A stretch of DNA of 64,000 nucleotides from NCBI RefSeq assembly GCF_013167455.1, contig NZ_CP038328.1. One strand, given 5' to 3'. Numbering within the stretch: position 1 is the stretch's first letter; every line of letters starts with the position of its first letter. Position numbers: made by a program. This document shows, one piece after another, positions 53,901 through 56,900 of this stretch. This DNA is from Escherichia coli O157:H7. Lineage in GTDB: Bacteria; Pseudomonadota; Gammaproteobacteria; Enterobacterales; Enterobacteriaceae.

Positions 53901-56900
53901 GCGATGTAGATCGTTCAGGCTGTAACGCCCATAAACATCACGACGAACTTCAATACCATCAATGACCATCAGATTATTCATACTTCGTTTCTCCTCTTGA
54001 TCAGGCGGCTGCACCCGCCGTTTTCTCGTACTTACTGATAGTGATCTCGACCTTCCCTTTCGGGATAACCGGTCCCACTCCACCAGCATTCTTTTCACCT
54101 GACTGTCGTCTTCCCACACACCCGCGTGGGTCAGGGCGTCAAACAGCGCCTTGTTATAGTTGTCCAGATCGCGGATCCTGTTATCCGGAGGAAACAACAC
54201 GATCTCCACTGAAGCAGGTGCCGACGTTGGTTTCGGCAGACGACGTAACTGCTCAATGATGGCGGCACACGCCGCGCTCTGAAATTTTCGCCCCGCCTCG
54301 CTTATCAGGCTCTTACCAGCAAATGCCCCTTTGTTGGGGTGTCGCCAGTACGTGTTCACGCTGGGCGGGAAAGGCAGGATCAGCTTCATACTTTCAGGCC
54401 CCTCTGATGTAACCAGTGGGTTGCACGCAGCCTGGCGTTTTCCTCACCGGCAAGCAGTGAGCGGATAATCCCGACCGCCTCGCTGTCGTCGTCCTTCACC
54501 GCGGTATGAAGCGTGATGCCCCGGGCCACGCCACGCTTTATCGTGATGACACCTTTTTTCTCCAGTGCGCGAAGATGCTCCACCGCTGCATTCACTGAAC
54601 GGTATCCCAGCATGATTGCCACCTCCTGATTGGTTGGCGGGAAGCCACGTTCTTTCTGATAAGAAATCAGCATATCCAGCACCTGCTGCTGGCATTGAGT
54701 TAACGTCGTCATGCCGCCATCTCCCTGACCAGTTTTTCCGCCTGCTGGCGAACCTGCGCCAGAAACGCCTCACCACATGCCTCAAGTTCATCGCGCCCGA
54801 TGTAGCTGATTGCCGGTCCCTTCCAGGTCTTATCGAAAACAGCAATAGCACCAGCGAAGAAAGCGCCTGTCGGCACCTGCTTCTCATCCTTCGGGATAAA
54901 CCAGGCAGGCAGTTCAAAACCAATACGCCCGCGAATAAAAGCAATATGGTCCGCATCTTCCGGCCACCACACTTCGCTGGTGGCAGCTTTGATCAGGAAA
55001 ACATAGCGCCCACCCTTATCACGCATGGCACTGGCATGTTTCATGATGTAACGCATGCCGGTGATGTATTGCCCCTCATGCTGACTGGCGCGGCTGTATG
55101 GGGGATTACCAAAGGCAGCCCCTTTAAGCTCCGCAAGACGTTCTGACCAGTCATGCGCCAGCGCGTTGTCTTCCGCCGTGTAATACGCAGCACATTTGGC
55201 GTTATCACCGTCAGTGAACAGATCCAGAACAAACGGGCCAAACAGGGTGTTAATTCCCCAGAAAATGTTGTCCGGCGTGCGCCACTGATCACCCACTTCC
55301 TTCAGTTCATGGGCTGGTTTGTTCCGCAGTTCCACCAGCTCCTGGCAATATTTATTACTCATTAAGCCCCCACGTAATTCCCTGACAGATACCACTCATC
55401 ACCCGATACAGCGCGCTTGCTGCTTTTCCGTAAACACTGCTCACGACGCGCCAGAAAATTGTTTCGTTCTGGCTGGGAGTGGCTTTCACGGAATGCCGCC
55501 ATCCACACCGTTGCAGCACGACGGTATAAGCCCCTGGACTCCAGTTCTTCCGCCTGGCGGGTCAGGCACAAAATCACCCGGGGATCGTTAGTGCCGACAT
55601 AGAAATTGCGCACAGGTCTGGTTTCACGAACTGGTTGTGGTTCCGGCTCCTGCGCTCTCTCAGTCAGGCGTGGGAAATGTCTGCGTGTATCTCCTTCACA
55701 ACGGTGAGCCACACGCCCACTCTGACGTAACTTGCTTGCTGACTGCAGAACGCGCTGCCGTGAGTAACCTGCAAAAGCATCCGCAATGTCTCCGGAAGTA
55801 CACCCCGGATGGGCTTCAATGAATTTCTGAACTTCATTCAAAAGACTCATGATCACCCCCTGAATCCTGCCGGGATCTGGCTGTAGTCCACGTTGTCGTA
55901 ACTGGCTTTGAAGTACGGGTCCTCGCGTCTGGCTGCAGATACCGCAGGAACTTCCCAGGATTCTTCGAAATGACGATCCGGACCAAAGAACGTGACAGCC
56001 TGTTTCACAAATTGTGTGCCGCTGTTACCCATCGCAGATACCCAGCCCGCGTAGCGTTTCACACCTTCCAGCATGGTTTCGGGGTTTACCCCCTCATTCA
56101 AACGGGCTTTCCAGGCTTTGAAGGCTGCAGATTTTGAATTGCCACCAGCACGTTTGGGATATGCCAGCCATGCCTGCTCAAACTCCGGAGAGTATTCCGG
56201 TCGGTTTGAACGAACTCGCACGGACTCATCAACTGATGCACCAACAGCTATTGGTTCATTGACTGGTTCTTTGACTGGTTCAAAAGAGTGACTGGTTCTG
56301 GGTGAATCTCCTGCACTACCCCCTGGTGCAACTCCTGCACTACCTGGTGAATTTGCTGCGCCAGATAGTGAATTATTTGCACTACCCCCTAGTGAATCTC
56401 CTGCACCATCCAGATGAAGGAGATAGATATTACTTGAGTTACCTTTTTCACCTTTCCGGGTGACTTTTTTTACCAGCCCGGACTCACAAAGGGCCGCAAT
56501 ATGATTCATCACAGAACGTTTGCTAATCTCGCACTGGTCAGCAATATGCTGGTAGCTGGGCCAGCACTCCCCCTGATCGCTGGCATTATCAGCCAGCTTG
56601 ATCAGAACCAGTTTTCGCAATGGATTACCCACTCGAATTTTCATCGCTTTAACCATCAGCTCCATACTCATGCTGCACCTCCGAGATGCTTCATGTTTTT
56701 TCCGGAGCGAAAGGCTATAAGCGGCATACTGACGCGGTAATTACGGCCCAGCGGTTCACAAATCACCTTCTGACATTCACGGTCAACCAGGCTAACACGT
56801 AGAACATGCCCTGCAGGTGTGGTGTACCACTGACCCGGACGAGGACAACGGAAAGTCTGATTGGTAAACCGTTTGAAAATATTCCGGATCATTTGCGCCC

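Follow-up and report, generated by a model that had tools for sequence, protein, structure and literature searches.

The prophage gene yfdN of O157-like Escherichia coli codes for a two-domain protein related to the PerC and ANR regulators

EPEC PerC and the EHEC group-1 Pch proteins are LEE1 activators that act as H-NS anti-silencers. Pch relieves silencing by H-NS/StpA/Hha, although Fukui et al. did not co-precipitate H-NS with PchA (PMC4764244). PchD and PchE have a minimal effect on ler (PMC5931665); PchE has been linked to curli and flagellar phenotypes (PMC6265319, PMC7369912), whereas none has been attributed to YfdN. The PerC-like copies carried by EDL933 and CFT073 PICIs had no effect on LEE1, and EcCIMP1_025 represses it (PMC11773190). 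ANR proteins self-associate and bind AraC-family regulators (PMC4983702). In the searchable literature we found no experiment on any YfdN-type protein; yfdN appears there only in screen and array listings and as a deleted background gene.

Here we analyzed a 64,000-nucleotide stretch of an E. coli O157:H7 genome (NZ_CP038328.1; hereafter the window), in which a first-pass annotation had proposed a PerC-like regulator at 55362-55850.

Gene and domain architecture

The proposed ORF is real and lies on the minus strand, its interval corresponding to the ATG start option at 55850 (162 aa). RefSeq uses the GTG at 55856 (164 aa), and the stop codon is TAA (55362-55364). The DNA of the gene has 100% identity to genes that RefSeq, in many genomes, labels yfdN or "PerC family transcriptional regulator". 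Its 18-kDa product matched PHROG 1324 over the full length (residues 1-161, E 5e-78), and this match together with the conserved neighborhood places it in that orthologous group. The ORF is thus a genuine, intact yfdN, which belongs to the early genes in a widespread group of temperate lambdoid phages from the Enterobacterales. Both the gene and its family assignment were already known from RefSeq, UniProt and PHROGs; in print, too, the K-12 gene has been described as a PerC homologue. The features of the locus are as follows.

54709..55362, minus strand: phage N6-adenine (Dam) methyltransferase gene, downstream of yfdN (TIGR01712, 255 bits; RefSeq annotation)
55362..55856, minus strand: yfdN-type coding sequence (ORF; identity to RefSeq yfdN CDSs; PHROG 1324)
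55365..55415, minus strand: C-terminal tail with the motif W-x-L-[AS]-G-x-[YF]-x-G (two alignments)
55416..55583, minus strand: PerC/ANR-like three-helix domain, aa 90-145 (Pfam PF06069, AF2, family alignment)
55584..55670, minus strand: variable linker, predicted to be disordered, aa 61-89 (pLDDT, alignment)
55671..55850, minus strand: N-terminal wHTH domain, aa 1-60 (AF2, Foldseek, PDB profile matches)
55853..56671, minus strand: replication-initiator gene with a wHTH and a Phg_2220_C/DnaD-like C-terminus, upstream of yfdN (PHROG 270, E 1.7e-88)
58887..58916, minus strand: PR-like sigma-70 promoter match, TTGACA-18-TACATT (consensus match)

The first-pass annotation had recognized a PerC-like C-terminal pattern, and an HMM search against the PerC family bore it out: Pfam PF06069 matched residues 98-151 (38.2 bits, E 1.8e-9). 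This match covered positions 5-58 of the 90 model positions and hence not the whole model. PF06069 was also matched by 35 of 36 two-domain YfdN relatives (E≤0.001). A group-1 Pch protein was 40% identical to YfdN over 50 aa by BLASTP (E 1e-8), and tblastn with PchE recovered 44% identity over 48 aa of yfdN (E 4.5e-8); tblastn searches with Pch, PchE and YfdN found no further PerC/Pch copy in the window. When YfdN was aligned with EPEC PerC, Pch and PchE, the core A..LE..G..RRA...W...C was invariant throughout, and within the family alignment L103, R111, A112 and C139 did not vary. AF2 modeled the domain as three helices (residues 90-105, 109-122 and 126-143; pLDDT 95-98), for which sequence and Foldseek searches matched no solved structure. 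PerC model positions 59-90, the C-terminal third common to PerC, PchABC, PchD and PchE, are missing from YfdN and are replaced by the tail, in which G157 and G161 are conserved in 89% and 94%, respectively, of the 36 relatives.

The wHTH-like region suggested for the N-terminus proved equally real. Residues 1-60 were modeled as helices H1-H2-H3 (3-13, 19-25, 31-44) followed by a beta-hairpin wing (47-60) with a pLDDT of ∼87-93. In Foldseek, this domain superposed on MecI/BlaI/ArsR/MarR domains with an rmsd of 1.3-2.3 Å over ∼58-68 residues, and a profile of the YfdN family matched BlaI and MarR chains in the PDB (E 4e-4 to 1e-3). Pfam gave no match for residues 1-60 of YfdN, and matches to Penicillinase_R or MarR_2 were weak (7-8 of the 36 relatives, E≤0.1). 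The linker that joins the two domains varied between 7 and 31 aa among the relatives, with a mean top-residue frequency of 16% and a pLDDT of ∼50 in YfdN; in the AF2 model (mean pLDDT 83) both domains are well predicted, with the linker disordered. Mean top-residue frequencies were 0.51 for the C-domain versus 0.42 for the N-domain, and to judge from the alignment the wHTH is the less conserved module, with conservation limited to core residues.

Position in the prophage and distribution

As had been proposed, yfdN lies in the replication region, since it overlaps the stop codon of the initiator gene: the initiator TGA shares its bases with the yfdN start (GTGA), and the yfdN TAA with the ATG of the Dam methylase gene (TAATG). 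With the replication initiator gene upstream of it and the Dam methylase gene downstream, yfdN is hence in all likelihood translationally coupled on both sides. The PR-like match separates the early-right operon from a cI-like repressor gene, and no other promoter-like match was found on the minus strand from the repressor gene to yfdN. yfdN is therefore probably transcribed with the early-right (PR) operon.

The same arrangement recurs in distant relatives. In 4/4 contigs long enough to judge, a yfdN-type gene (27-39% identity) directly followed a replication gene, which was of the HTH_36/Phg_2220_C type or, in contig L004, lambda P. Genes for a Dam/D12 methylase, a LexA_DNA_bind protein and RusA lay downstream in three of these four contigs, and directly so in two. 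Contigs L007 and L008, which represent the homologue P0180 (25% identity), are short, and synteny there was judged by flanking overlapping ORFs only. UTME-1 and 493/89 share both the gene and its neighborhood (replication gene, yfdN, Dam, LexA-like, RusA). From its conserved position, yfdN would be an embedded early-operon gene and not a moron. A slot that always follows the replication genes would be just as compatible with a role linked to replication.

The prophage is integrated at dusA of an O157-like E. coli, where the flanking chromosome has 99.8-100% identity to O157-like strains. It is a mosaic, covered to at most 79% in any complete genome. The NleG-like gene on which the first-pass annotation had drawn exists (18747-19397), being collinear at 98.3% with annotated nleG7, and the same prophage carries an espS remnant. 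Related prophages have a LEE-activating group-1 pch between the lysis and terminase genes, which is absent from this window. A role in a defense system was considered and rejected, as PADLOC gave no meaningful match for YfdN.

Among 5,426 complete E. coli genomes, 2,667 contained yfdN and 696 contained LEE1 (ler-escR), and therefore at least 1,971 carriers of yfdN are without LEE1. Viable phages with yfdN include mEp460, SfV (orf40), SfII, ST64B, Ayreon and Stx2c phages, and the gene is also found in phages of K-12/C strains, Shigella and Salmonella. Full-length relatives reach down to 25% identity. The AFDB50 matches are two-domain proteins of 136-166 aa, annotated as PerC or ANR, from across the Enterobacterales.

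Possible functions of YfdN

We favor the view, at a probability of roughly 60%, that YfdN acts as an early regulator in the phage's own program, using its wHTH to reach DNA and its PerC/ANR domain for protein-protein contacts. The protein consists of two independent modules, the wHTH and the strongly conserved three-helix domain, held together by the flexible linker of variable length. Given PR-operon transcription and the coupling to initiator and Dam, YfdN would be made upon infection or induction and not in the quiescent lysogen. Conservation across the entire N-domain is weak; by its fold, the domain would place YfdN on DNA. By analogy with relatives, the PerC/ANR domain may oligomerize, displace H-NS-type silencing complexes as Pch does, or bind another regulator as ANR proteins do. 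Acting through such contacts, YfdN would serve the gene-expression program of the phage itself.

More tentatively, and with considerable doubt, YfdN-type proteins could be seen as those members of the PerC/ANR superfamily that are tethered to DNA and whose role in the early development of lambdoid phages is fixed across the Enterobacterales; the short virulence regulators PerC, Pch and ANR would be domain-minimal offshoots of this phage gene. Such a role might be local H-NS counter-silencing on phage DNA, or the neutralization of a host regulator at the lytic switch. If this were true, the PerC domain would gain a general function beyond A/E pathogens, one open to testing.

An ANR-type anti-activator, whose helical domain inactivates a host AraC/XylS-family regulator or H-NS so that YfdN would be a repressor, appears unlikely. 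ANR_neg_reg (NF033650) was the best NCBIfam match (22.5 bits, E 7.5e-5), but its curated cut-off is 32 bits, and EPEC PerC and PchE scored similarly below it (18.2 and 17.9 bits); the match therefore reflects relatedness within the superfamily rather than membership. The published ANR signature (PMC4983702) is indeed matched by the three helices and the A/E/A/W/R/C residues of YfdN, and distant two-domain relatives bear the ANR annotation. ANRs, however, are single-domain proteins of <10 kDa, whereas YfdN has these helices within 162 aa that also include a wHTH. The LEE1-repressing PICI PerC-like protein has been proposed to be ANR-like (PMC11773190); as for a possible partner of YfdN, the annotations of homologous prophages contain no AraC-family gene.

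We consider it quite improbable that YfdN activates the LEE1 (ler) promoter in the manner of PerC/PchABC and that the prophage thereby up-regulates type III secretion of its host. The first-pass annotation had hinted at such modulation, a claim that is not supported in view of the distribution of yfdN, its early-operon slot, the truncated PerC match and the effects of relatives. The core motif of PerC is present in YfdN, but without model positions 59-90, and PchD and PchE, which are nearer to PerC in architecture, barely affect ler (PMC5931665), just as PICI PerC-like proteins are neutral or repress LEE1 (PMC11773190). Regarding yfdN as the K-12 PerC homologue, Uhlich et al. took the precaution of removing it from their ler::lacZ reporter strain (PMC5931665). 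The O157-like flank and the presence of nleG7 and the espS remnant fit a LEE-related role, yet the true LEE-activating pch of related prophages sits elsewhere, and the LEE1-less majority of carrier genomes and the presence of yfdN in phages of K-12/C, Shigella and Salmonella argue against one. The early-operon position would also confine expression mainly to lytic growth. As yfdN is a standard early-operon gene found mostly in LEE-less E. coli, nothing ties it specifically to LEE control, and on the favored early-regulator view any effect of YfdN on the LEE would be incidental. To judge by these relatives, membership in the PerC family does not predict LEE activation, and the family label should not be read as implying it.

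There is likewise little probability that YfdN, instead of being a transcription factor, has an accessory part in phage DNA replication, such as that of a modulator binding the origin or the initiator. Such a role would agree with the invariable position of yfdN immediately downstream of, and translationally coupled to, one or more replication genes, with iteron-like repeats at 56252-56406 inside the adjacent initiator gene, and with the frequency of the wHTH fold among replication initiators. Nevertheless, YfdN resembled no replication protein by sequence or profile, and its conserved domain is that of a regulator superfamily. Two more specific candidates were rejected. Lambda Ren occupies the same slot after O-P, but PHROG 142 was matched only at an E of 0.01 and BLASTP against Sakai Ren returned no alignment. 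A substitute for the helicase loader was discarded because the homologue in L004 follows lambda P and because a DnaD-like C-terminus is present in the initiator itself.

Finally, the idea that the ORF arose by chance or is a pseudogene, its motif being fortuitous, has only the shortness of the PerC match (54 residues) in its favor and can be dismissed, given full-length homologues that keep the domain boundaries down to 25% identity, near-identical intact copies in thousands, a confident AF2 model and a conserved gene order.

The value of these results as a discovery is small, the gene and its family having been annotated before, and the useful points are corrective. The yfdN subfamily comprises two-domain, early-operon phage genes that reside mostly in LEE-negative bacteria. 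With a gene of uncharacterized function in about half of all complete E. coli genomes, it marks a real annotation gap.

Comparison with known systems

With EPEC PerC (pMAR7/EAF plasmid, 89 aa) and EHEC PchA/B/C (104 aa), YfdN shares a helical core of ∼50 residues at 28-40% identity. The layout of these LEE activators is that of single-domain proteins of ∼90-105 aa, encoded by accessory genes in the per operon or in morons. YfdN departs from it in adding an N-terminal wHTH and a linker and in lacking the C-terminal ∼35 residues, in place of which it ends in a W-x-L-S-G-N-Y-V-G tail. Moreover, yfdN is a putative early-operon gene and neither a late-region moron nor part of a plasmid-borne per operon, and its genomes are mostly LEE negative. 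PchD (ECs1388, 89 aa), PchE (ECs1588, 90 aa, from the PICI-like Sp7) and the PICI protein EcCIMP1_025 have the same core domain as YfdN, but are single-domain proteins from other genomic contexts.

ANR proteins such as Aar (NF033650) have a three-helix domain with the same signature residues. In contrast to them, YfdN is twice the size and carries a wHTH, and the related prophages show no annotated AraC-family gene. The wHTH domains of BlaI/MecI, MarR and ArsR share the fold of residues 1-60 with marginal sequence likeness; their dimerization or sensor domains are absent from YfdN, which has the PerC/ANR domain in that place. The closest counterparts are E. coli K-12 YfdN, encoded in the CPS-53/KpLE1 prophage, and its RefSeq orthologues, which represent the same gene (164 aa) in the same neighborhood. 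From these the present yfdN shows no substantial difference, the surrounding prophage here being a mosaic.

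Genomic context of yfdN

The window carries a lambdoid prophage integrated beside dusA. Its chromosomal flank matches E. coli UTME-1 at 100% identity and O157:H7 strains at 99.8%. The gene in question, yfdN, lies in the early-right region of this prophage, together with the following features:

58951-59604, plus strand, cI-like repressor gene, adjoining the PR-like promoter
58916 to 58887, minus strand, predicted PR-like promoter (promoter-like match)
55853-56671, minus strand, replication initiator gene (wHTH plus DnaD/Phg_2220_C-like C-terminus)
55362-55850, minus strand, yfdN from ATG 55850 (162 aa), or from the RefSeq start GTG 55856 (164 aa); stop TAA at 55362-55364

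Downstream of PR, the minus-strand order is a CII/YmfL-like gene, a Rha-like regulator, DUF4222, the initiator, yfdN, Dam methylase, LexA-N-like, RusA/KilA-N, DUF968, and the Q antiterminator. The initiator TGA overlaps the yfdN GTG (GTGA), the yfdN TAA and the Dam ATG share bases (TAATG), and no promoter-like match was found between PR and yfdN, which is therefore embedded in the predicted early operon. Judged from these overlaps, yfdN is probably translationally coupled to its neighbors, and we infer that it belongs to the PR operon.

RefSeq coding sequences named yfdN and annotated as "PerC family transcriptional regulator" are 100% identical in DNA to the gene in the window, and YfdN matches PHROG 1324 ("transcriptional activator") from end to end (E 5e-78). 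Matches to yfdN were present in 2,667 of 5,426 complete E. coli genomes, spanning at least 80% of the gene in 2,546 of them. The gene is also carried by the temperate phages mEp460, SfV (as orf40, annotated "unknown"), SfII, ST64B, and Ayreon and by Stx2c- and Stx2a-converting phages, the hosts of which include E. coli K-12 and C, Shigella, and Salmonella. The gene is an already annotated and very common phage gene; its product is the protein of the K-12 prophage CPS-53/KpLE1.

Several neighboring features were recorded. Within the low-complexity linker of the initiator gene, iteron-like direct repeats at 56252-56406 comprise three copies of TGACTGGTTC and 3 to 4 copies of a ∼21- to 24-nt unit, GTGAATCTCCTGCACTACCCCCT, resembling the arrangement in lambda O, where the origin sits inside the initiator gene. 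A single 405-aa minus-strand open reading frame (ORF) at 53172-54389 encodes a RusA resolvase (aa 1-113) followed by a KilA-N/regulator part (aa 137-403). In related prophages, RusA (∼130 aa) and KilA-N (∼265 aa) are two separate genes, and it is precisely where the two parts meet (53771-53905) that the window and its UTME-1 relative diverge; this ORF could be a real fusion or reflect a lost stop codon. Upstream of the late region are three phage-borne tRNA genes (49667-49918, minus strand), two for Arg (anticodons TCT and TCG) and one with a CAT anticodon, called Met by ARAGORN and Ile in the RefSeq annotation of relatives. The portal region (35290-37874, minus strand) consists of two ORFs, 35290-36513 and 36510-37874, with an internal self-similar stretch of ∼370 nt at 35756-36288 (offset, 162 nt); the portal gene of a relative is annotated as frameshifted.

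Domain architecture and relatives of YfdN

An AlphaFold2 model (mean pLDDT, 83), computed from a 36-sequence family alignment, predicted the following arrangement:

Residues 1-60, wHTH (three helices plus a beta hairpin, pLDDT ∼90)
Residues 61-89, low-confidence linker
Residues 90-143, three-helix bundle (pLDDT 95-98)
After the bundle, short C-terminal tail

Foldseek superposed the wHTH on MecI, BlaI, ArsR, SmtB, and MarR domains at 1.3-2.3 Å, and the family profile matched BlaI and MarR chains (E 4e-4 to 1e-3). The PerC/Pch motif described in the first-pass annotation is present (...AEELESRGLYRRAATVWMAAFRESHSQPERNNFLARREQCLRK...), and Pfam PF06069 (PerC) matched residues 98-151 with 38.2 bits (E 1.8e-9), covering only model positions 5-58 of 90. 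BLASTP aligned YfdN with the 104-aa group-1 Pch of a related prophage at 40% identity over 50 residues (E 1e-8), and Sakai PchE as a tblastn query gave 44% over 48 residues (E 4.5e-8). An alignment of YfdN, EPEC PerC (pMAR7), Pch, PchE, and four other short relatives had an invariant core of A, L, E, G, RRA, W, and C. Since the PerC-core matches and the wHTH predictions both stand, the earlier observation of a PerC-like segment fused to a wHTH-like N-terminus is confirmed.

Full-length relatives down to 25% identity were recovered when 1.8 billion cluster representatives were searched exhaustively. Among the 36 aligned, the C-domain showed the strongest conservation (invariant L103, R111, A112, and C139), the wHTH was conserved less and chiefly at hydrophobic-core positions, and the linker varied from 7 to 31 residues. 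Pfam PerC matched 35 of the 36, with only scattered weak Penicillinase_R and MarR_2 matches on the N-domain. In AFDB50, the two-domain family, labeled PerC or ANR, extends across Enterobacterales, including Salmonella, Enterobacter, Citrobacter, Klebsiella, Erwinia, Yersinia, and Serratia.

The genes of distant homologues occupy the same slot. For P0171 (30% identity) and P0182 (29%), an HTH_36/Phg_2220_C initiator lies upstream, and Dam, LexA_DNA_bind, and RusA lie downstream; P0192 (31%) also has an HTH_36 initiator upstream, with different genes downstream. P0148 (39%) has a lambda-P-type gene upstream, and a D12-class methylase, LexA_DNA_bind, and RusA further downstream; because it comes after a lambda-P-type gene, YfdN is ruled out as a substitute for the helicase loader. 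Synteny was judged with P0180 (25%) set aside, its contigs being too short.

Candidate roles of YfdN

YfdN joins a conserved helical domain to a wHTH that is conserved less and, on the simplest reading, may be an early phage regulator or nucleoid modulator that is targeted to DNA: the wHTH would give phage-specific targeting, and the PerC/ANR domain would make a conserved protein contact. ANR proteins contact AraC-family regulators and also self-associate (PMC4983702). That YfdN is itself an ANR-like anti-activator is argued against by its score with the NCBIfam ANR model, 22.5 bits against a cut-off of 32 bits; EPEC PerC (18.2 bits) and PchE (17.9 bits) likewise fall below threshold, and thus the match indicates kinship of the PerC and ANR domains rather than membership of YfdN in the ANR family. 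Alternatively, and less probably, YfdN might serve as a replication accessory factor.

YfdN, the LEE, and known Pch proteins

The first-pass annotation had taken the PerC-like pattern, together with an NleG-like gene, as a hint that the prophage modulates a type III secretion system. That gene is indeed present (18747-19397, plus strand), collinear at 98.3% with the annotated nleG7 of UTME-1. Adjoining it is an EspS-like (espS) remnant (19622-20496, minus strand), also 98.3% collinear with UTME-1; both sit at the prophage end nearest the integrase. The host probably belongs to an A/E lineage.

The PerC-family part of the proposal held, but a LEE-directed function for yfdN is not supported, and distribution and family phenotypes argue against YfdN as a LEE activator. 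LEE1 (ler-escR) occurred in 696 of the 5,426 genomes versus 2,667 for yfdN, and therefore at least 1,971 yfdN carriers (74%) lack the LEE. In related prophages, the pch genes that activate the LEE are located between lysis and terminase genes, and tblastn found no group-1 pch in the window. PerC-family membership is also no predictor of LEE phenotype: only PchA, PchB, and PchC strongly activate ler, and PchD and PchE hardly do so (PMC5931665); PchE instead has a repressive effect on curli and adhesion and a positive one on flagella (PMC6265319, PMC7369912); and among PICI-encoded PerC-like proteins, those of EDL933 and CFT073 leave LEE1 unaffected and EcCIMP1_025 represses it (PMC11773190). 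Uhlich et al., who call YfdN "the K12 unique PerC homologue," used a ler::lacZ reporter strain with yfdN deleted, and a YfdN effect was not part of their assays (PMC5931665). Elsewhere in the searched literature, yfdN appeared in the lists of screens or arrays or turned up as an unrelated text match.

The lysis-to-terminase segment of the window (43133-45989) departs from the otherwise collinear prophages of E. coli UTME-1 and 493/89, and the 104-aa group-1 Pch (PerC family) gene that these have there is absent from it.

Pch activation itself consists of relief of H-NS/StpA/Hha silencing at bound loci (PMC4764244). In Sakai, pchE (Sp7 locus L002, 11104-12045) lies in a PICI-like element with integrase, primase, SSB, and then capsid genes, and pchD (SpLE1 locus L013, 42944-45147) directly 3' of ibrA/ybdM (ibrAB-like) genes; short PerC-family genes thus occupy mobile-element contexts quite different from that of yfdN. 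Sakai PchD (89 aa) and PchE (90 aa) are single-domain proteins, whereas YfdN has two domains, and therefore no experimentally studied Pch protein is of the YfdN type. In place of the C-terminal ∼35 residues common to PerC and Pch, YfdN has a conserved W-x-L-[AS]-G-x-[YF]-x-G tail.
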